DNA from: Halorhodospira halophila SL1 | Lineage (GTDB): Bacteria > Pseudomonadota > Gammaproteobacteria > Nitrococcales > Halorhodospiraceae | Assembly: GCF_000015585.1 (NCBI RefSeq) | Contig: NC_008789.1 | Span: 990,001-1,022,000 of the forward strand | Direction: 5' to 3' | Length of the DNA: 32,000 nt | In this document: one piece after another, positions 6,382 through 20,238 of the stretch | Position numbering within the stretch: position 1 is the first letter of the stretch | Layout: every line of letters starts with the position of its first letter | Position numbers and translations under genes: made by a program | Notes under the pieces: generated by a model | Database searches by the model: none | What the model saw: only the letters and a program-made list of their open reading frames with translations | Told to the model about the DNA's origin: nothing

Positions 6382-6774
6382 TCAGTCGCTGCCCTGCTCC
6401 GGATCCCGCCCGAGCAGGTCGCCGAGCCCCGCGAAGGGCGAGTGCGTCGACTGGGGGGCGGCCCCGCGGCCCTTGCGGCGCGGCTGCTCGGGACCGGTGG
6501 CCGGGCCGATCTCGCGCTGGTGCTCGTGATCGTGGCAGTAGAGGCAGAGCAGCTCCCAGTTGCTGCCGTCCTCGGGGTTGTGGTCGTGGTTGTGGTCGAT
6601 GTGGTGGACCGTGAGTTCGCGGACGTTGCGCCGATCGAATTCGCGCCCACACCGCCCGCACACCCAGGGGAAGCGCTTCAGTGCCTTCTCCCGGTAGCCG
6701 TGTTCGCGCTGCGCGCGCTCCTGCTGGGCGCGGGCGACAATGGCGTCCAGGCGTTTCCCGTCGGGCTGCCCCAT
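6382..6774 (-). CDS. yajD: HNH endonuclease family protein YajD
   Basis: HGYREKALKRFPWVCGRCGREFDRRNVRELTVHHIDHNHDHNPEDGSNWELLCLYCHDHEH is nearly colinear with E. coli YajD. I placed the start at ATG 6774 (MGQPDG...). The track's longer 194-aa ORF has an Arg/Trp-rich, implausible N-terminus. Confidence 0.85.
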   Translation of the reverse strand: MGQPDGKRLDAIVARAQQERAQREHGYREKALKRFPWVCGRCGREFDRRNVRELTVHHIDHNHDHNPEDGSNWELLCLYCHDHEHQREIGPATGPEQPRRKGRGAAPQSTHSPFAGLGDLLGRDPEQGSD

Positions 6775-6892
6775 GGCTGACCTCCCTGATCCGGCTCGAT
6801 GGACCTCATACACCGCCCATAGTAGCCAGCCGCCGCCGGCGTGACCACGGCGCCACAGCACCACCGGTCGACCCAGGCGCTGGCACCGGTCC

Positions 6893-7510
6893 TCACCCGG
6901 TGATGTACGGCGCCTGACGCAGGTAACGGTCGTCGCCCAGCTGCTCGAGCAGGAACGTCGCCACATCGGCCCGGCTGACCGACCCGGCGCCGGTGTCGTG
7001 ATCCGTGCCGGCGCGCCACTCGCCCCGCCCCGGTCGGTTGGTCAGCCGCCCGGGGCGCACCACCACCCAGTCGCGATCGCTGGCAGCCAGGACCTGCTCG
7101 AGGCGCTCCTTATCCGTCATCAGACCCTTCATCAGGGTGCGGATCAGCAGCCGGAAGACCACCGACACCTGGGCGTAGCTGTCCCCCACCCCCATGGCCG
7201 AGACCGCCACCACCCGCGGGACGCCCTGCTGCTGCATGGCCTCGACGATCACCCGGGTGCCCTCACTGCACAACCGCGGCGGGTTGCGACGGGTCTGCCC
7301 CAGGGCGATGACCGCGCCATCGCAGTCGTAGAGGGCCCGGCCCACGGCCTCGGGATCGAGCACGTCGCCGACCACCACCTCGACCCCGGGCAGCTCCGGC
7401 ACCCGATCGGCGCTGCGCGCCAGCACCCGGCACCGCCATCCGCGCCCCAGGGCCTGGCGCACCACCTCGGCCCCGACGCCGCGGGTCCCACCAAACACCG
7501 CAATTTTCAT
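6893..7510 (-). CDS. NAD(P)H-binding (atypical SDR / flavin-reductase-like) protein
   Basis: The protein begins with the Rossmann motif MKIAVFGGTRGVGAEVVRQAL and contains VVVRPGRLTN later on. ATG 7510 is preceded by AAGGGGAGG on the minus strand. The track's upstream extension looks non-coding. Confidence 0.75.
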   Translation of the reverse strand: MKIAVFGGTRGVGAEVVRQALGRGWRCRVLARSADRVPELPGVEVVVGDVLDPEAVGRALYDCDGAVIALGQTRRNPPRLCSEGTRVIVEAMQQQGVPRVVAVSAMGVGDSYAQVSVVFRLLIRTLMKGLMTDKERLEQVLAASDRDWVVVRPGRLTNRPGRGEWRAGTDHDTGAGSVSRADVATFLLEQLGDDRYLRQAPYITG

Positions 7511-11679: not shown

Positions 11680-12489
11680 TTAGCGCCAAAAGGTCAGGCC
11701 GTTGAGGGTGCCGTCGGTTAGGGCGCTTGGGTAGCGGTGCAGCACCTCCGGGCCGTACTCGCGGGCACGGCGCTCATCGTCCCGCTGGCGGTAGGGGTCG
11801 AACACCCGCCCCGGCGGCAGCGGCTTGCGCGGATCCATGTACCAGCAGTAGAAATCCCACTCCTCCTGCATCCGCCCCAGGGGTACGCTGAGGTGGTTGT
11901 CCGGGCGAAGGGCGCTGATACCGCCGAAGTGTCCCCCGTAGGACCCTGGGCTGTACTCGGGGATCACCTCCAGCTCCCGCCAGGGCACCTCGATGTAGTC
12001 CCCTTCGCCCACCGGCGGGAGGGAGACGGTCTGCTTGCGACGGTCGAAGGTCACCGTGTGCGGTGGCCGCTTGCCGCGGCGCATGCGGATATAGCTGCGC
12101 AGCTGGCGCAGGGAGATCCATAAAGAAAAAGCCGTTAGCGCAGCCAGCCCTGCCGAGAACATGGCAGCGAAAACCATGACCGAGAAATACCAGGCTGGAA
12201 AATCCTCCACAGCGAACACTACTGCCATTACTCCGAAGACAATGGATCCCGCCAAGAAAGCCCCGCTAAAAAAGAGAGGAATTAATGCCTGCGCTAGCTC
12301 GTCGCATCTACAGGGACGCTGGATGTACTCATCATCAGCCAAGATCCCTAACTCCCTCTCCGTCCCGTCATCATCGAGCACCGGGAAAGGAGGGAGCCTT
12401 TCTGAATCCTTTACCAACCAACGCTTACCTGCGGAGCGACGGGCCACCCAGCGGCTGATGAACGGCGGGCGGTAGAATGTCCACGCCAT
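11680..12489 (-). CDS. Two-TM membrane protein, putative immunity protein for the upstream effector
   Basis: The 269-aa ORF has GGGAGG 7 nt upstream of its ATG and starts 15 nt after the effector stop. Two hydrophobic helices are visible (LIPLFFSGAFLAGSIVFGVMAVVFAV and WYFSVMVFAAMFSAGLAALTAFSLWISL), followed by a soluble tail of about 140 aa. I recognise no family. The immunity role is inferred from position only. Confidence 0.6.
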   Translation of the reverse strand: MAWTFYRPPFISRWVARRSAGKRWLVKDSERLPPFPVLDDDGTERELGILADDEYIQRPCRCDELAQALIPLFFSGAFLAGSIVFGVMAVVFAVEDFPAWYFSVMVFAAMFSAGLAALTAFSLWISLRQLRSYIRMRRGKRPPHTVTFDRRKQTVSLPPVGEGDYIEVPWRELEVIPEYSPGSYGGHFGGISALRPDNHLSVPLGRMQEEWDFYCWYMDPRKPLPPGRVFDPYRQRDDERRAREYGPEVLHRYPSALTDGTLNGLTFWR

Positions 12490-12504: not shown

Positions 12505-15500
12505 TCACCCCTGCGACCGGCTCCCGGCCGCCTCTTCCCTGAGCACCTCGTCCACGGTCAGCGCACGGGGCGCCACCGCCGCCTTGGCCCGACCCTGCCA
12601 GGCGGGCACGGGCACCCGGGCCACCCAGTAGCGGGGCGTGCCGTCGGCCTCGGGCTCCGGCAGGGCGTCGTCACCGGCGCCGGCTACCGCCCGCTGCCGG
12701 ATGAGGAAGCAGAGCTCGCCGCGCCACCCCGGGGCCGTCGGCAGGGCGTCCCAGGCGAGGGTTACCGTGAGGGCGTCGGAGCCCTCCCCCGGCGCCGCCT
12801 TGATGAACGCTGGAGGCAGCGGGGTCACCTCCTGGCAGGCACCGTCCTCCGGGCAGAGCAGCACCCGACACTCCAGGCGGTCCCGCCGCCACGCCACCCC
12901 CGCCAGGGTCAGGCGGACCTGGCGCAGGGCGCCCCGGCCGCCCAGCTGCTGGCTGTACTCGGCGGCCACCCGCAGCGGCGGGCGGTGCAGGACGCGCTGC
13001 CACCAGGCGGCCACCGCCGGCCAGTCGTCCCAGCTCCCGGTCTCGGCGGGCCGTTGCACCGGTGGCCCCACCTCCACCGCCCGGGCCACCCAGGCCCACC
13101 CCGAATCCCGGTCCGAGCCACCCAGCCGCTCCCGGGCTGTTGGGGTAAAGGGGCCATTGCGACAGAAATCGGCAAACGAAGTATCTGAAACATAGCCCGC
13201 TATAGCCGACGCACCGACGGCTACCAAGAGAAACGACAGACCAACACCTCCGCTACCCGCAAGCCAGAAGCCACCCGCACCCAGGTAAGCTAACCCCGCC
13301 ACGAACCACGTCCGGCTGGCTACCTCATCACCACGTGAGGATCGACTGTAGCCGCGGCCCGCGGCATAGATCGCGCTTGCGAAAGCGGCTGCACCACCAA
13401 GCACTTGCGCCCGTAATCCCAACCGCTCGATACGCCCATACCTCGGATCCCCCACCGGAATCCGTGGCTTCAGATAGGCGAGCCGGGTCTGGGCGAGCAG
13501 CTCCGCCAGGGTCAGGGAGGAGGCGACGGCGCTGGCGATGTGGTACCAGGCCTCGGTACGGGTCTGGCGTACCGCCTGGTTGAGGTTGATGAGCTCCAAG
13601 GCGCCGAAGACGCTGCGCAGTGCGTGGCCGCCGGAGCTGGTGGAGAGGCGCTCGGCCAGGTCGGCCAGGCGACCCTCCGGCAGGCGGGTGGAACGCAGTT
13701 CGCGGACACGGATCTCGTCCTCGATGCGCAGCTCGGCGGTGAGGGGGCTGCCGAGGACCTGCACCGGGCCGCGGCCGGCATCGGCCACGGCGGCGTGGTA
13801 GTCGTCGCTGCCGGCGGCGAGGATGCGGAAGCGCCGCTCGTAGCCCTGGTGCTCGATCCGCAGGGTGCGCGCCTCGCCTCCCGTAGGCGCTCCGGCGCGG
13901 CGCTGGATTTCGGCCAGCGGGACGCCGTCGAAGTCCGGCGCCGGGTAGCTGACCGTGGTCACCTCCAACCCCGCCAGCAGGGCCAGACCGGGCAGCTCCT
14001 GGAAGCGGCAGGTGATGCGCATGACGTGCTCGAGGGCGTCGCCCTGATAGCTCACCGACTCGGCGAAGGTCGACAGCAACACGTACAGGACCTCCGCCGC
14101 GTCCTCGGCGGTCACCGCACGGCGCTGCTCGGCCAGGTCGCAGCAACGCTCCACTGCCTGGAGACGCCGCGGCGCCGCCGCCAGCTGCAGCTCCAGCTCC
14201 CGGCGCGGCCGGGGCAAGCCGCCGCCCCGCGCCCCGGCGCCCAGGGTCAGCGGCTCGGCCGCCAACAACCGGGCGGCGACCCGGGCCAGCCCGGAGGGAT
14301 CACCCTCGGCCTCCAGGACGGTGCGCAGCAGCGCGCGGGCCTGATCCAGTTCTGCGGCCTCCGCCTCGCCCTCGGCCGCGGGGATGTCGCCGATGTAACC
14401 GTCGGCGGTGTCCGCCGGCACGGCCAGCTCCCGGAAGTGCGCGCCCAGGGCGGCGAGTCCCTCGAAGACCCGGCGCGGGGTGTTGCCGGCGTAGTCGGCC
14501 AAGGCATCGGCGTAACGTTGGCTACTGAGCAGCGCCAAGCGCTTGCGGCGCACCCGGCGAATCTCGGCGCGGATCTCGCTGCGTTCGGCGACACCGAGCA
14601 GGCGCTCGAGCAGCTCGCGGTCGGGCGGTTGCTCGCCGGGCCCCAGGCGCTCCTCGACGAAGGCCAGACGAAAGGTGCCCGCCGCCACGGCGTGGAGGGA
14701 TTCGGCCGCCGCCAGCCATTGCTCGTCGGGCTGCTGCGGATCGCCCTCCCCTTCGCCGACGGTGCTTCGCTCCGGATTGGTGCCGGTCTGCAGCCCGGCG
14801 ACCAGCGTCTCGAGTCGATCCGCCAGCGCCGCCTGCTCATGGGCCAACCCGCGCGCCTCGCCCAGGGGGTCGTCGAGGTAGAGCAATGCCAGACCGTCCT
14901 CGGCGTAGGGGGCGAGATCCTCGCGGACCGGCTCGGATTCGCCTTCTTCCGCCACCGCGTCGCGGAAGGCGCCACTCCCCCCGAGGCGGCCGGCCGCCCC
15001 GGGCCCGGTGTCGGGGTCTTCGGTTAGCTCAATGGGGAAGAAGCGCGCCTCGGGGGGTGGCTCGGCGGCGCCGTCCGGTTCACCGTGTACCCCGGCCCGG
15101 GGATCGTCGGGGGCCAGCCCGCCGGCGGCGGCGATGCGCGCCCAGGGGAGCTGGACGGCAGAAAACAGCCCCTCCAGGACCACCGGCTCGCCGCCGATGC
15201 GCAGCGGCAGGAGCAGCATCGGCCGCCCATCACCGGTGGGCCGGCGCAGGTCGCCGTGCTCGTAGGCCAGGTTGACCTCGTGGAGGCGGCCACGCGGGTG
15301 GACATAGCACTCACGCCACAGGTAGCGCCGATCCCCCTCCCGACGGAACAGGTAGAGCCACCCCCCGAAGCCGAAGCCGGCGTCGCGGTGGCGGAGCTCG
15401 GCGTCCCGGGCGAAGCGCACCAGCGTCGGGATCAGGACCGTCGGCGGGGAGACCTCGGGCTCCTCCCCCGGCAGCCACGCCGGCTGTTCGGCCCCGCGGG

Positions 15501-16188
15501 TGAGCGGGACCTTGCAGAGGTGGTGACGCCGGTCGGCGTCGATCAGGCTCAGTTGCAGCGCTTCGGTCCCTTCGGGGAGCTCTTCGATGGCGGCTCCCCA
15601 CCGCTCGCCGTCGTGGTGGCTCCAGCGTAGGGCCCGGCTGCGGTGCCAGCCGCCCGACGCCGGCTCGACCACCACCTCGCCGGGGAGCGGGGCCTGCGGC
15701 CCGCCACCGATGTCGATCCGCGTCCGCGGTCGTGGCTCGGCGTCCGGCGGCGGATCGCCGCCGGTCAGGGTGGTGGGCGGGAGCTGCTCCTGGAGCAGCG
15801 GGGCCGGCGGGGTGTTCTCGTGGTTGGCCACCATGGCGTCGAGGGCTCGAGCCACCGGCACGCCCTCGACGAAGACGTCCGGCGAGCCGCTGCCGGGCAG
15901 GAAGGTCGCCGGACCGGTGATGGTGCCGGAAACGGTCCCGCCCTGATCACCCCCCTCGTCGCCCCGGGAGCGGGCGAACTGCGAGGCCTCGGTGCAGACC
16001 GGGTGCCCCTCGACGAAGACAGTTCGGGCGGTCTCCGCGGCGTCCCGCGACTCGGCCACATTGAGGTACGGGATCGACACCGTCGAGCTGCCGACGGTGG
16101 TGCGGCAGACGTCGGTGGTCAGCAACTCGCCCCCGGAGCCAGCGTGCACCAGGGTGCGGCCATTGGCGGTTACCGTGGGCCGGGTCAC
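12505..16188 (-). CDS. Large T6SS-type effector with an N-terminal PAAR-like DUF4150 domain, a VasX/MIX-like region and C-terminal TM helices
   Basis: Residues 1 to about 128 read TANGRTLVHAGSGGELLTTDVCRT..VSIPYLNVAESRDAAETARTVFVEGHPV..SRGDEGGDQGGTVSGTITGPATFLPGSGSPDVFVEGVPVARALDAMVANHENTPP, the DUF4150 pattern. LIPTLVRFA and GFGGWLYLF (aa 251-281) resemble MIX/VasX_N motifs. Glycine-rich TM helices lie at about aa 880-995. I chose GTG 16188 as the start, overlapping the upstream stop as GTGA. The track's 1578-aa ORF carries 351 Arg/Pro-rich out-of-frame-looking extra codons. Confidence 0.85.
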   Translation of the reverse strand: MTRPTVTANGRTLVHAGSGGELLTTDVCRTTVGSSTVSIPYLNVAESRDAAETARTVFVEGHPVCTEASQFARSRGDEGGDQGGTVSGTITGPATFLPGSGSPDVFVEGVPVARALDAMVANHENTPPAPLLQEQLPPTTLTGGDPPPDAEPRPRTRIDIGGGPQAPLPGEVVVEPASGGWHRSRALRWSHHDGERWGAAIEELPEGTEALQLSLIDADRRHHLCKVPLTRGAEQPAWLPGEEPEVSPPTVLIPTLVRFARDAELRHRDAGFGFGGWLYLFRREGDRRYLWRECYVHPRGRLHEVNLAYEHGDLRRPTGDGRPMLLLPLRIGGEPVVLEGLFSAVQLPWARIAAAGGLAPDDPRAGVHGEPDGAAEPPPEARFFPIELTEDPDTGPGAAGRLGGSGAFRDAVAEEGESEPVREDLAPYAEDGLALLYLDDPLGEARGLAHEQAALADRLETLVAGLQTGTNPERSTVGEGEGDPQQPDEQWLAAAESLHAVAAGTFRLAFVEERLGPGEQPPDRELLERLLGVAERSEIRAEIRRVRRKRLALLSSQRYADALADYAGNTPRRVFEGLAALGAHFRELAVPADTADGYIGDIPAAEGEAEAAELDQARALLRTVLEAEGDPSGLARVAARLLAAEPLTLGAGARGGGLPRPRRELELQLAAAPRRLQAVERCCDLAEQRRAVTAEDAAEVLYVLLSTFAESVSYQGDALEHVMRITCRFQELPGLALLAGLEVTTVSYPAPDFDGVPLAEIQRRAGAPTGGEARTLRIEHQGYERRFRILAAGSDDYHAAVADAGRGPVQVLGSPLTAELRIEDEIRVRELRSTRLPEGRLADLAERLSTSSGGHALRSVFGALELINLNQAVRQTRTEAWYHIASAVASSLTLAELLAQTRLAYLKPRIPVGDPRYGRIERLGLRAQVLGGAAAFASAIYAAGRGYSRSSRGDEVASRTWFVAGLAYLGAGGFWLAGSGGVGLSFLLVAVGASAIAGYVSDTSFADFCRNGPFTPTARERLGGSDRDSGWAWVARAVEVGPPVQRPAETGSWDDWPAVAAWWQRVLHRPPLRVAAEYSQQLGGRGALRQVRLTLAGVAWRRDRLECRVLLCPEDGACQEVTPLPPAFIKAAPGEGSDALTVTLAWDALPTAPGWRGELCFLIRQRAVAGAGDDALPEPEADGTPRYWVARVPVPAWQGRAKAAVAPRALTVDEVLREEAAGSRSQG

Positions 16189-17213
16189 GCGGCACCCCCA
16201 GAGGAGGCGCCACCCCCCACGGTGCTTTCGGCCGGCTTGCGCAGGTCGAACACGCCGGCGACGCCGTCCCCCGCGGCGGTCAGCAGGATGCGCTGCGGGC
16301 CCTCGGCGGCGTGCAGCAGCCCGGCGGCTGCCACCAGCTGCAGGGGCAGTGTGGCCGCGCCGGAAAACCCTAGGCCGCGCCACAGCAGGTGGCGCGCGGC
16401 GGCCGGGGTGCGCCGCAGGGCGGGCACCAGCCGGCGGACGTTGGCCCAGGCCTGGCGCTCTGCCGGGGTGGCGCCGAACCCGTGGGCCTCGACCAGGGCG
16501 CCGGCAGCGTCTGCTTCCGGCACGGTCTCCTGGAGCAGTCGCTGCCAGGTGGCGGGCTGCTCCGACGGACCGCCCAGGGCCGCGCGCTGGAGCAGCAGGC
16601 CGGCCGACCCGGCGGGGGCGGTGCGCAGCAGCAGGAAGGCGGCGCCATCCGCGGCGGGGGGTCCGTCGATGGCGGGGAGGCACCGGCGGCGCAAGCGCGG
16701 ATCGGCGCAGGCCGCCGGGGCCGCGCAGGGATCGACGCCGCCGATCAGGAGGCTCGCCAGCCGACCCTCGGCAACCGCCTGCGCGGCCCGGTGGAGCAAC
16801 TGCACCGCCGATACGGGCCCCTGCGGCCGCCACCAGGCCACCCGCCGAAGCGGCGATACCCGATCGGTCAGCTGCCCGATCAGCCAGTGGTGCTGCGCCC
16901 AGCGCACCCCGGGTTGATGGGGCCCCGGCGGGATCACCACCGCCGCCGCGGGGGGCGCGGCGGTGAGGCGCTCGCTCAGCCGCGGGGCGCTGTCCGCGAC
17001 CAGGCGGTCCATGCGCGCGGCGTAGCCCTGGCCGTCCAGCGCCGGATCGCTGAGCACTGGGATCGGCTGCTGCGGCGCCTCGCCGAGCAGCTCGGGCTGT
17101 GCCACGGGCGGGGCGTCGGTCACCGCACGGGCCAGGGCCTCGGGATCGGTGCCGGCGGCGTGCCAGGCGGCCAGCGGCTCGAACAGCACGGGGGCGGTGG
17201 TGGCGTGGTTCAT
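16185..17213 (-). CDS. Degenerate beta-ketoacyl-synthase/thiolase-fold protein, likely a non-enzymatic accessory or chaperone
   Basis: The 342-aa protein starts at ATG 17213, in an ATGA overlap with the DUF2169 gene stop. KAS-like landmarks are present: AARMDRL, RPQGPVSAVQLLHRAAQAVAEGRLASLLIGGVD, ADGAAFLLL, VEAHGFGAT and GLGFSGAATLPLQL. There is no Cys at the nucleophile position, and the second catalytic His is replaced (GFSGAA versus GHxxGAAG). Confidence 0.7.
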   Translation of the reverse strand: MNHATTAPVLFEPLAAWHAAGTDPEALARAVTDAPPVAQPELLGEAPQQPIPVLSDPALDGQGYAARMDRLVADSAPRLSERLTAAPPAAAVVIPPGPHQPGVRWAQHHWLIGQLTDRVSPLRRVAWWRPQGPVSAVQLLHRAAQAVAEGRLASLLIGGVDPCAAPAACADPRLRRRCLPAIDGPPAADGAAFLLLRTAPAGSAGLLLQRAALGGPSEQPATWQRLLQETVPEADAAGALVEAHGFGATPAERQAWANVRRLVPALRRTPAAARHLLWRGLGFSGAATLPLQLVAAAGLLHAAEGPQRILLTAAGDGVAGVFDLRKPAESTVGGGASSGGAA

Positions 17214-18226
17214 CGCTCTCCGCCCCCGATCCCGTCGGCATCGACCCGCAATGCCCAGCCCGGCCCCGGCGCCGGCTCCGGCACCCACCCCCGCCAGACC
17301 AGCCACACCCGGCCGGCGTCGGCGTCGATCCCCAGGGTGTCCGCCTGCACCGTCACCCGCTGTCCGCGCCCCGGGCGGTGCAGGGTGACCTGCGGACCGC
17401 CGCCGGGCAGTTGCCAGATGACCGTGTGGTCCGGGTCCACCCCAGGGAGGACCCCCTGCAGGCGGATGCGCTCGTCGCCGCACAACGGGGTGTCGAGGCA
17501 CTGGTCTGCCGGGGCGGCATTCCAGGCGTCGGGCCGGGGCAGGCGGCGGTAGCGCAGCTGGCCCTGGCGATAGGCATGGGCATCCAGGCGCCCGAAACGC
17601 CGGGCCCGGGGCGCCCAGGCCGCCGCCAGAGGCCCGAAGCCGGCGGGCGCCCCGCGCCGGGTGGCGCGGTGGTCGTCCCACAGCAGCCGGGGCGACGGCC
17701 CGGCGGCGGCACCCCACCACGCCGCCCGATGCCCCCGGCCCACCGGGTTGCGAGCGTAACGCCGGTGCCGCGGCCCACCGAGTGGTCCGCCGTAGGCCAG
17801 TTCGTAGGTGAGCGGCACCGGCCCCTCCAGCGCACCGGGCGGATCGGAGGCCCGCGGCGGCGGCTCGGCCACCGCCCACACCCGCTTGGGGCCGAACCGG
17901 GGCCGGCCGCCGGCGTCCTCGACCCCCAGACAGGCCGCTGCCTGCGACCGCCCGGGGCCGACCTGTACCGCGCCGTGGAGCAGGCACTCGGCCCCGTGCT
18001 TGAAGGGAACGCAGTCGGGTGCGGTGAGCGGGGCGTGAGCGGCGGGATCACCGGCGTAGCGTTCGGCGGTCTCCAGCGCCGGCGTGTCGTCATCGAGGCG
18101 CAGCCGGGCGGCATCGCCGCCGCGGAAGCCGGCCTTGACCGCCACCGCGATCCCCGGGCACCCAGCGGCATCGAGGTCCACCCAGGCCCGCGCATCCAGC
18201 GGCCCCTGGACCGAGACAGGCAACAT
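17210..18226 (-). CDS. DUF2169-family T6SS adaptor protein
   Basis: The 338-aa protein carries the DUF2169 landmarks in order: AVAVKAGF, DCVPFKHGAECLLHGAV, GPKRVWAV, VPLTYELAYGGP, NPVGRG, PAGFGPLAAAWAPRARRFG, LPRPDAWNAAPADQ, LCGDERIRLQGVLPG and VQADTLGIDADAGRVWLVWRG. Confidence 0.85.
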   Translation of the reverse strand: MLPVSVQGPLDARAWVDLDAAGCPGIAVAVKAGFRGGDAARLRLDDDTPALETAERYAGDPAAHAPLTAPDCVPFKHGAECLLHGAVQVGPGRSQAAACLGVEDAGGRPRFGPKRVWAVAEPPPRASDPPGALEGPVPLTYELAYGGPLGGPRHRRYARNPVGRGHRAAWWGAAAGPSPRLLWDDHRATRRGAPAGFGPLAAAWAPRARRFGRLDAHAYRQGQLRYRRLPRPDAWNAAPADQCLDTPLCGDERIRLQGVLPGVDPDHTVIWQLPGGGPQVTLHRPGRGQRVTVQADTLGIDADAGRVWLVWRGWVPEPAPGPGWALRVDADGIGGGER

Positions 18227-18237
18227 TCCAGGGCACC

Positions 18238-18699
18238 TCAGTTGATGGCGACGCGGGCCCCGCGGATGCGGTGCTCGCCGCGGGCCCTGGCCTCGACCAC
18301 CTCGCCGTCGATGCGGATGGCGCCGTCGGCACCGAGTTCCAACTCGGCGCCGGCCACCTCGAGGCGGATGCTGCCGTGCTCGGCCCGCAGCAGGTAGCTG
18401 CCGTCGGGGCGGCGCTCCAGGCCCGCACGGGGCGGTTCATCGGCATCGGCGAGGGCGTGGATCAGGTAGAGCCCCTGATCGGCTGGGTCGAGCAGTGCCA
18501 CCACCCGATCGCCGGGCTTGAGTGCGGAGAGCTCGCGGGCGTGGCCGGCCACGGGCCACTCGGTGATCCCCTCGGGGGTGTCGACGGCCACACGGGTGGC
18601 CCGGCCCTGACGGCTGGTGGTGAGAACCTCCGCCCAGCAGACGGCGGTGGCGGCGTACAGGCCCACGGGTACGGGGCCGAGAACCGGATCATCTTCCAT
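18238..18699 (-). CDS. Small gp5/gpV-like spike protein (OB-fold plus short beta-helix) lacking the VgrG gp27 hub domain
   Basis: The 153-aa protein starts at ATG 18699, with GGGAG about 10 nt upstream. The N-terminal half (VGLYAATAVCWAEVLTTSRQGRATRVAVDTPEGITEWPVAG...LKPGDRVVALLDPADQGLYLIHAL) fits the baseplate-V / VgrG gp5 OB-fold pattern (..W.pv....P.vGD.V.v.f..GD...p.i.g.l). The C-terminus (GSIRLEVAGAELELGADGAIRIDGEVVEARARGEHRIRGARVAIN) looks like gp5_C beta-helix repeats. The track's 365-aa ORF extension runs antisense through bioA and is not VgrG-like. Confidence 0.68.
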   Translation of the reverse strand: MEDDPVLGPVPVGLYAATAVCWAEVLTTSRQGRATRVAVDTPEGITEWPVAGHARELSALKPGDRVVALLDPADQGLYLIHALADADEPPRAGLERRPDGSYLLRAEHGSIRLEVAGAELELGADGAIRIDGEVVEARARGEHRIRGARVAIN

Positions 18700-18879
18700 G
18701 ACGATCGTGCTCCCTGTGGTAGACCATCCTTGGTGGTTGTTATTAAGGAACACCGTTCGCCAGCGTCCCGTCAACCCGACAGGGCGCGCGGATTGTCGCC
18801 GGCACGCTGGACCCATTCGCCGGCACGAGGCAGACTCCCGCCCGGCGAGCCGCGACCCACCACTGCCCGGAGCCCGGCC

Positions 18880-20238
18880 ATGAACGACCGCAACAGCGAA
18901 CTGATCCGCCGCGACCTCAACGTCCTGTTCCATCCGACCACGCAGATGAAGGACCACCACGACGGGCTGCCCCTGATCCCGGTGGAGGCCGGCCGCGGTG
19001 CGTGGCTCCAGGATCGCAACGGCAAGTGGTACCTGGACGCCATCAGCTCCTGGTGGGTGAACCTGTTCGGCCACTGCAACCCGCGGATCAACGAAGCGAT
19101 CCGCAACCAGCTCGACCGGCTCGAGCACGTGATCCTGGCCGGTTGCTCCCACGAGCCGGCGGTGGAGTTGGCCGAGCGCCTGGTGGACCTGACCCCGCCG
19201 GGGCTGGAGCGGGTCTTCTTCACCGACAACGGCTCGTCGAGCATCGAGGTGGCCCTGAAGATGAGCCACCACTACTGGCGCAACACCGGCCACCCGGAGA
19301 AGACGCGCTACATCAACCTCTCCAACAGCTACCACGGCGACACCATCGGTGCGCTGAGCGTCGGCGATGTAGGGGTGTTCAAGGACGCCTACAAACCGCT
19401 ACTCATGGAGCCGATCACCGTGCCGTCGCCGGATTGTTTCCACCGTGAACCCGGCACGGACTGGGCGGAGCACTCCGAGCAGATGTTCGCCCACATGGAG
19501 GCGGCGCTGCAGGAGCACGGCCACGAGACGGCGGCGGTCATCCTCGAGCCCCTGGTCCAGGGGGCCGGCGGCATGCGCATGTACCACCCGGTCTACCTGC
19601 AGCGCCTGCGCGAGGCCTGCGACCGCCACGGGGTGCACCTGATCGCCGATGAGATCGCCACCGGATTCGGCCGCACCGGCACGCTATTCGCCTGCGAGCA
19701 GGCCGGCATCGCGCCGGATTTCATGTGTGTCTCCAAGGGCATCACCGGCGGCTACCTACCCCTGGCCGCGGTCCTGCTCAGCGAGCCCATCTACCAGGCC
19801 TTCTTCGACGACTTCACCCGGCTGACCGGCTTCCTGCACTCGCACAGCTACACCGGCAACCCGCTGGCCTGCGCGGCCGCCCTGGCGACGCTGGGGATCT
19901 TCGAAAGCGACCAGGTGCTGGCGCACAACCGCGACACCGCCCGGCGCATGGCCGAGGCCGCCGCACCCCTGGCCGACCACCCGCGGATCGGCGAAGTCCG
20001 CCAGCAGGGCATGATCCTGGCCATGGAGATGGTGCGCGATCCGGCCCGCAAGACGCCCTTCCCCTGGCAGGAACGGCGCGGTCTGATCGCCTACCGCCAC
20101 GCCCTGGAGCGCGGCGTGCTGATGCGCCCGATCGGCAATGTGCTCTACTGGATGCCGCCCTACGTGATCGAGCCGGACGAGATCGCCCTGCTCGGCGAGG
20201 TGGCCGCCGAGGCCGTCGACCGGGCCACCCGGGACTAA
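18880..20238 (+). CDS. bioA: Adenosylmethionine-8-amino-7-oxononanoate aminotransferase
   Basis: The protein is colinear with E. coli BioA: HPTTQM, DAISSWWVNLFGH, FFTDNGSSSIEVALKM, YHGDTIGALSVGD, LIADEIATGFGRTG and CVSKGITGGYLPLAA (the PLP lysine). The start is ATG 18880; the track ORF begins upstream at 18271. Confidence 0.95.
   Translation: MNDRNSELIRRDLNVLFHPTTQMKDHHDGLPLIPVEAGRGAWLQDRNGKWYLDAISSWWVNLFGHCNPRINEAIRNQLDRLEHVILAGCSHEPAVELAERLVDLTPPGLERVFFTDNGSSSIEVALKMSHHYWRNTGHPEKTRYINLSNSYHGDTIGALSVGDVGVFKDAYKPLLMEPITVPSPDCFHREPGTDWAEHSEQMFAHMEAALQEHGHETAAVILEPLVQGAGGMRMYHPVYLQRLREACDRHGVHLIADEIATGFGRTGTLFACEQAGIAPDFMCVSKGITGGYLPLAAVLLSEPIYQAFFDDFTRLTGFLHSHSYTGNPLACAAALATLGIFESDQVLAHNRDTARRMAEAAAPLADHPRIGEVRQQGMILAMEMVRDPARKTPFPWQERRGLIAYRHALERGVLMRPIGNVLYWMPPYVIEPDEIALLGEVAAEAVDRATRD

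Follow-up and report, generated by a model that had tools for sequence, protein, structure and literature searches.

A divergent TvpC/DUF6484-like protein heads a T6SS effector island without an adjacent vgrG in Halorhodospira halophila SL1

A small gene of Halorhodospira halophila SL1 encodes a 153-aa protein which, judging from profile–profile comparison, belongs to the TvpC/DUF6484 family of T6SS accessory proteins, although it is divergent and had escaped recognition until now. The protein is of a kind already known, and the only unusual feature here is that no vgrG lies beside its gene. We consider it rather probable that it acts as a TvpC-like surrogate VgrG tip, on which the effector cap would be pre-assembled and from which it would then be handed over to a real VgrG. 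The analysis covers a stretch of 32 kb, hereafter the window, and the positions given below are those of this window.

DUF2169 gene neighbourhoods fall into three syntenies (Sachar et al., JBC 2025, PMC11883445). Type A has the order vgrG, DUF6484, DUF2169, thiolase-like, armadillo-like and DUF4150 (‘PIPY’) effector, and killing by the P. mirabilis type A cluster requires every one of its genes (Sachar et al., PMC11883445). The name Tvp was given to these accessory proteins by Monlezun, Earl & Coulthurst (bioRxiv 10.64898/2026.02.23.707444). In their class II, DUF6484 is TvpC, DUF2169 is TvpA and the thiolase-like PRK06147 protein is TvpD, TvpC being described as an OB-fold and beta-prism trimer devoid of gp27. 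For class III, co-purification in Serratia revealed a TvpC-TvpAB-TvpB-Paar1 pre-complex; the VgrG1-TvpAB-TvpB-Paar1 complex depends on it, and the two exclude each other. In the P. aeruginosa class II cluster PA0095-PA0099, the same role is predicted for PA0096 (DUF6484), with a 28 A prism, while TvpA (DUF2169) and TvpD (PRK06147) are predicted to shield the PAAR-like domain of Tse7. The pre-complex and the hand-over are experimental only for the Serratia DUF3540-type TvpC; those concerning DUF6484 are AlphaFold-based predictions of the preprint (bioRxiv 10.64898/2026.02.23.707444).

Results

An intact small gene at the head of a five-gene island

The minus-strand open reading frame starts with ATG at 18699 and stops with TGA at 18238-18240. 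A preliminary description of this DNA had pointed to a small ORF with its own ATG and a GGGAG motif; both are indeed present, the GGGAG lying 10 nt before the ATG, and the peptides ITEWPVAG, LKPGDRVVALLDPADQGLYLIHAL and IRGARVAIN are all found in the 153-aa product. The gene and its surroundings are organized as follows.

11680..12489, minus strand: candidate immunity protein, 269 aa, two hydrophobic helices; role proposed from position only
12505..16188, minus strand: effector, 1227 aa, with an N-terminal DUF4150/‘PIPY’ PAAR-like cap (Pfam Tox-PAAR-like, E 1.5e-32, residues 9-113)
16185..17216, minus strand: candidate tvpD, 343 aa, very divergent thiolase-like/PRK06147-type protein, from position and transitive homology
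17210..18226, minus strand: tvpA, DUF2169 chaperone of the PAAR-like domain, 338 aa (Pfam PF09937, E 3.2e-56, full length)
18238..18699, minus strand: tvpC-like gene, 153 aa, from ORF and sequence, AF2, Foldseek, hhalign and dN/dS
18700..18885, no strand: intergenic region of 186 bp between the divergent tvpC-like and bioA-like genes, presumed promoter region
18714-18710, minus strand: GGGAG, Shine-Dalgarno-like motif, read directly from the sequence
18886..20238, plus strand: class-III aminotransferase, bioA-like (E 8.6e-103)

The tvpC-like, DUF2169 (TvpA), TvpD-like, DUF4150 effector and candidate immunity genes are tightly packed or overlapping, and form an island inserted between housekeeping genes. 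The DUF2169 gene, whose product is a single-domain protein, begins 11 nt past the tvpC-like stop codon, and its own stop is overlapped by 7 nt by the start of the 343-aa gene. The stop of this candidate tvpD is in turn overlapped by the GTG start of the effector gene (GTGA), and the candidate immunity gene starts 15 nt beyond the effector stop. The effector cap contains a SIPY motif; the long C-terminal part of the protein includes hydrophobic segments, and the effector weakly resembles the NCBIfam BTH_I2691 family of T6SS effectors, at a level (E 1.5e-5) that stays far below the cutoff. The 269-aa candidate immunity protein, a two-helix membrane protein, has no family match. A sigma-70 consensus scan detected no promoter in the operon or in the intergenic region. 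The remaining genes of the window are of the housekeeping type, namely purC, gap, metK, a DEAD-box helicase, an M42 peptidase, an FGGY kinase, rsmE, a CheA-like kinase and gshB, identified partly via the annotation of the related locus L002.

The 153-aa ORF is not a chance one, since an identical protein is on record (100% identity to an NCBI protein of Halorhodospira halophila), since orthologues with 84% (L002) and 56% (L001) identity are found in two relatives at the same chromosomal position, beside bioA and heading the same operon, and since its dN/dS ratio by the Nei-Gojobori method is 0.23 against the 84%-identical gene of L002 (dS 0.39) and 0.25 against that of L001. By the same method, the comparison genes give about 0.1 for bioA and 0.26 for the neighbouring DUF2169 gene. 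Three lineages share the N-terminus and its start (M-D/E-D), and the C-terminus (RGARVAIN) is conserved as well. The gene is under purifying selection and is not a remnant. Its current labels are hypothetical protein or ‘Phage baseplate assembly protein V’, the latter being its UniRef name.

Membership of the TvpC/DUF6484 family

By hmmscan, the Pfam DUF6484 model (PF20093) gives no match to the 153-aa protein at E <= 0.1. An exhaustive HMMER search with three Halorhodospira sequences, in a library of 1.84 billion representatives, retrieved 92 representative clusters at E <= 1e-3. Leaving aside some short fragments and a single repeat protein of 2341 aa, their members are 113-186 aa long, and none is VgrG-sized. 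Among the 75 family members scanned, the PF20093/DUF6484 model finds a strong match in five, and some weakly match DUF2345 (the C-terminal region of VgrG), DUF3540 (eight members) or Phage_base_V. The family profile retrieves 1230 proteins; all but five of the best 120 of these carry PF20093/DUF6484, and three of the five exceptions are the query's own Halorhodospira sequences.

To avoid circularity, the Halorhodospira sequences alone were used for profile–profile comparison. By hhalign, these three sequences align with 24 bona fide DUF6484 proteins over residues 19-153 with a probability of 96.7% and an E value of 4.5e-10. The Halorhodospira-only profile also reaches two PF20093-carrying proteins, P0063 and P0091, at 4e-5 and 8e-4, respectively, in the 1.8 billion-protein library. 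A C-terminal pattern common to both sides is visible by eye: AExxIxLxxGxAxxxLxxxGxxxIxGxxVxxRxxGxxRIxGAxVxIN.

A spike-type fold ending in a VgrG-like tip

From an alignment of only 3 sequences, AF2 yielded a poor model (pLDDT 57), which was replaced by one based on the 75-sequence family alignment (pLDDT 87). In the latter, residues 1-18 form a disordered, low-confidence tail, followed by an OB-fold of five strands (residues ~20-82) and by short beta-prism strands (~94-153) which end in the nearly invariant C-terminal Asn of the family. The best Foldseek match in the PDB is the membrane-piercing spike of the R2 pyocin (4s37, E 7.5e-6, probability 1.0); next come the spikes of phages Bas63, P1 and Mu, the PVC spike, Salmonella VgrS, the Anabaena CIS spike and P. 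aeruginosa VgrG1. Against viral models, the matches are Gp5/Vgr OB-fold and baseplate proteins. At the sequence level, a phmmer search of the PDB with the 153-aa protein gave chance matches only, and Pfam found no Phage_GPD match, i.e. no gp27-like hub, in this protein.

By sequence comparison, the beta-prism half is homologous to the end of VgrG. Positions 94-147 of the family profile align to residues 557-611 of P. aeruginosa VgrG1, corresponding to the last beta-helix turns (E 1.3e-5), and the profile also aligns to VgrG1a, VgrS and P. protegens VgrG1. The same relationship is seen within single loci, where the C-terminal ~50 residues of the small protein align to the VgrG encoded just upstream: to residues 682-729 of 743 in L011 (E 1e-6) and to residues 663-708 of 723 in L010 (E 3e-5). 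The OB-fold and short beta-helix of the gp5/gpV/VgrG central-spike type, without gp27, which had been proposed from the sequence, are consequently confirmed by the fold prediction and by both the structure and the profile searches. The 153-aa protein thus combines a gp5-like OB-fold directly with the VgrG beta-helix tip, that is, with the surface accepting a PAAR-type cap.

The missing vgrG

No vgrG was found in the 32 kb window by tblastn with three full-length VgrGs (E < 0.1), the stretch upstream of the small gene included, and the same search was also negative in L001, L002 and a 20-kb H. halochloris locus (L003). The upstream neighbour of the small gene is the divergent bioA-like gene, not a vgrG, and the 186 bp of intergenic DNA are too short to leave room for a vgrG remnant. 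As had been described, the in-frame upstream DNA, open to 19335, is antisense to bioA, the aminotransferase gene occupying 18886-20238 on the plus strand. The initial opinion that this is not a frameshifted vgrG holds with these searches. We also rejected a frameshift or an assembly artefact on the ground that three independent assemblies display the same vgrG-less arrangement, the upstream DNA being bioA.

The T6SS of SL1 is encoded by locus CP000544A, Hhal_0154-0166, at 178.5-195.9 kb, which includes two COG3501 (VgrG) genes of 649 and 686 aa (Boyer et al. 2009, PMC2660368, supplementary file 165) as well as Hcp and TssB, C, E, F, G, J, K, L and M (Boyer et al. 2009, PMC2660368). Neither Hhal_0154-0166 nor its listed flanks are in the 32 kb window. 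The island is thus an unlinked auxiliary module and must use a VgrG encoded elsewhere. The idea that SL1 is devoid of T6SS, raised by a TssK protein search in which none of the 14 relatives listed was labelled H. halophila, was rejected on the basis of this locus. A genome-contig scan with H. halochloris TssK returned only one unrelated MAG (28% identity) and missed H. halochloris itself, and is hence uninformative on SL1. A literature search pairing Halorhodospira with T6SS terms retrieved nothing relevant, and the SL1 genome paper does not mention T6SS.

Gene order in relatives

In every examined locus extending far enough, DUF2169 is found within two genes downstream of the small gene. L010 and L011 exhibit the canonical order: VgrG (723 or 743 aa), small gene, DUF2169, PRK06147. 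The idea that DUF2169 genes are normally preceded by a full VgrG proves incomplete: in L010 and L011 a full VgrG is indeed present upstream, but the gene just before DUF2169 is small, as in synteny type A where the small DUF6484 gene sits between vgrG and DUF2169 (PMC11883445). The small gene of SL1 does not replace VgrG; it is the expected accessory gene, with the vgrG missing in front of it. In H. halochloris, the module lies directly upstream of tssJ-tssK-tssL and, after the small gene and before DUF2169, contains an additional gene of 399 aa, which also occurs in two metagenomic relatives and is absent from H. halophila.

The candidate TvpD

The 343-aa protein has no match of its own in Pfam or NCBIfam. 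It shares 32% identity (BLASTP E 3e-31) with the product of the H. halochloris gene in the same position, which itself matches PRK06147 weakly (5.6e-5). Its positional equivalents in other loci match PRK06147 at 4e-13 (L009), 2.8e-113 (L010) and 1e-63 (L011). When the 343-aa protein is compared directly with PRK06147-type proteins by hhalign, the signal is weak (E 0.006, probability 6%). No ketosynthase is retrieved from the PDB with a profile restricted to the Halorhodospira TvpD-like proteins, and the ketosynthase matches of a mixed TvpD-like profile are driven by its non-Halorhodospira members. We keep this protein as a candidate TvpD, by position and transitive homology only, and it represents the weak point of the class II match.

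Discussion

The gene order and the structural predictions suggest how such a module could work. Three copies of the 153-aa protein would form a short surrogate spike tip which, having no gp27 hub, would not be mountable on the Hcp tube. The DUF4150 PAAR-like cone of the effector would fold on this surrogate tip, and the DUF2169 and thiolase-like proteins would shield the PAAR-like domain. The loaded cap with its chaperones would then be handed over to a real VgrG trimer (Hhal_0154 or Hhal_0155), and TvpC would leave. We infer the formation of a trimer and its binding to the PAAR-like domain from the published Tvp model. The unlinked arrangement provides a natural test case as to whether a TvpC pre-complex can deliver a cap to a VgrG whose gene lies elsewhere.

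A broader proposal is that the Tvp module of the H. halophila lineage is a free-standing ‘plug-in’ tied to no vgrG: an effector acquired as a cassette would pre-assemble on the TvpC-like trimer and load onto either resident VgrG or, less likely, the mini-spike would stay on the fired spike. We hold this extension to be rather unlikely. If it were true, whatever the outcome, effector-spike compatibility would be set by TvpC and not by genetic linkage to a cognate vgrG.

The protein could instead be a working part of the spike, its trimer remaining on the cap and being fired with it, whether stacked on a resident VgrG tip or combined with a gp27-like hub encoded separately. Such a view is in keeping with the lack of a linked vgrG both here and in three related Halorhodospira loci, and with experimental evidence of hand-over coming from the DUF3540-type TvpC only. 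Yet in Serratia, TvpC and VgrG1 never co-purified, while their complexes share the same partners (bioRxiv 10.64898/2026.02.23.707444), and the tip extension stacking on another spike that had been suggested at first runs against this published mutual exclusivity. Moreover, the protein ends bluntly in a region homologous to the VgrG tip, so that TvpC and VgrG would compete for the same cap face, and the N-terminus is, in the AF2 model, a disordered tail without docking domain. We regard this reading as unlikely.

Another suggestion of the preliminary description was a decapitated vgrG remnant, i.e. a 3′ part left after loss of the gp27 half, decaying or functionless. In favour of it, the 153-aa protein shares homology with VgrG in its OB-fold and beta-helix tip, no vgrG is adjacent and, at the evolutionary time-scale, the whole family has probably arisen from the 3′ portion of a vgrG. 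As an account of the present gene, however, this is largely refuted by a large family whose members are stand-alone proteins just as small, by a start conserved in three lineages together with dN/dS values indicative of purifying selection, and by the canonical loci L010 and L011, which encode a full VgrG and the small protein side by side. Beyond gp27, most of the beta-helix is missing too, and only 186 bp lie before bioA. A remnant is thus very improbable.

Just as improbable is a minimal spike of the P2 gpV or R-pyocin type serving a phage tail, a tailocin or an extracellular contractile injection system, the ‘different machine’ envisaged at the outset: structurally, the R2 pyocin spike comes closest, the model also resembles viral Gp5-like proteins and the UniRef name points the same way, but the 153-aa protein has no PHROGs and no Pfam Phage_base_V (PF04717) match, the 32 kb window holds no tail, sheath or baseplate gene, the chain ends bluntly at the beta-prism without apex domain or HxH motif, and the small gene is always linked to DUF2169 and DUF4150.

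Coming back to the TvpC-like surrogate tip, comparison with known systems specifies what it shares with each of them. Like the P2 gpV and R2 pyocin (PA0616, PDB 4s37) spikes, it is a small stand-alone chain of OB-fold and beta-helix; whereas these carry a sharpened apex domain and belong to tail gene clusters, it ends bluntly like a PAAR-accepting VgrG tip and has T6SS adaptor genes as neighbours. With VgrG (COG3501; PA0091 VgrG1, PDB 4mtk), it has homologous OB-fold and last beta-helix turns, but lacks the gp27/Phage_GPD hub and most of the beta-helix; without gp27, it presumably cannot dock on Hcp. [quoted passage not shown] DUF3540 does not match the 153-aa protein, and no pentapeptide-repeat gene occurs in the operon.

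The closest resemblance is with class II. [quoted passage not shown] The 153-aa gene can accordingly be named as a TvpC-like T6SS accessory protein, and the five genes of the island together make up what reads as a complete class II Tvp effector module, with a candidate TvpD. Several features set it apart. Described class II loci have an adjacent vgrG and the island has none; it is surrounded by housekeeping genes and lies neither within nor next to the T6SS cluster; no armadillo-like gene is seen in it; and the nearest relatives carry a ~400-aa gene between tvpC and DUF2169 which is absent from the H. halophila island. Finally, the 153-aa protein falls below the Pfam reporting level, within a divergent subfamily of 92 representative clusters. 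This subfamily escapes the Pfam DUF6484 model, and surveys based on the model consequently under-count class II systems.

Operon structure and the effector end of the island

The genes of the operon overlap at two junctions: the DUF2169 and tvpD-like genes share 7 nt (window 17210-17216), and the tvpD-like gene meets the effector gene in a GTGA overlap (window 16185-16188). Such an arrangement is consistent with translational coupling, which would be apt for components of one complex required in fixed proportion.

The effector (window 12505-16188) carries several hydrophobic segments in its C-terminal third and displays a weak match to the BTH_I2691 family of T6SS effectors (E 1.5e-5). Downstream of it, the 269-aa ORF (window 11680-12489) encodes two hydrophobic helices, and a family search with this ORF returned zero matches. 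The two together look like a membrane-targeting toxin with its immunity protein. In L001, a related assembly with the island at the same chromosomal position, no called gene separates the effector from the FGGY kinase gene, and the kinase itself is shorter (381 versus 518 aa).

Additional genes in related modules

In the nearest relatives, tvpC-like and DUF2169 are separated by an additional gene, some 400-430 aa long, that the H. halophila operon lacks. At the H. halochloris locus (L003), two further genes lie directly upstream of the tvpC-like gene.

Additional genes around the tvpC-like gene in relatives
L003, 7152-9179: gene for a 675-aa protein, directly upstream of tvpC-like
L003, 9247-9735: gene for a 162-aa protein, directly upstream of tvpC-like
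L003, 10500-11699: gene of about 400-430 aa, between tvpC-like and DUF2169
L009 (locus of a relative), 741-2000: same gene, same position
JGI contig: same gene, same position

Searches of Pfam and NCBIfam with the additional gene gave zero matches; its product may be the 'armadillo-like' member of synteny type A or else another Tvp component. The 675-aa and 162-aa proteins had no Pfam match even at E <= 1, and neither can be recognised as a VgrG or an Hcp, even though tssJKL lies right beside the module.

The Halorhodospira T6SS and other findings

Among the genes that Boyer lists for Hhal_0154-0166, the T6SS locus of SL1, which lies outside the window, a ClpV (COG0542) entry is absent and two vgrG genes stand in tandem (PMC2660368). 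A word-indexed search of 5.8 billion proteins found only 14 relatives of the TssK of this Halorhodospira-type T6SS, which suggests a rare and divergent T6SS lineage.

Two different Tvp modules follow each other on one metagenomic contig (L010, 2987-7744), the first class I-like (vgrG, DUF2169, DUF4150 protein) and the second, immediately after it, class II-like (vgrG, tvpC-like, DUF2169, PRK06147). The exhaustive HMMER search with the three Halorhodospira tvpC-like sequences also retrieved a 2341-aa protein (P0012) with nine separate matches to query residues ~67-105, which may be a long repeat protein made from the OB-to-prism linker region.

Elsewhere in the window, amid housekeeping genes, a 194-aa ORF (6382-6966, minus strand) contains an HNH endonuclease domain (E 1.3e-12).
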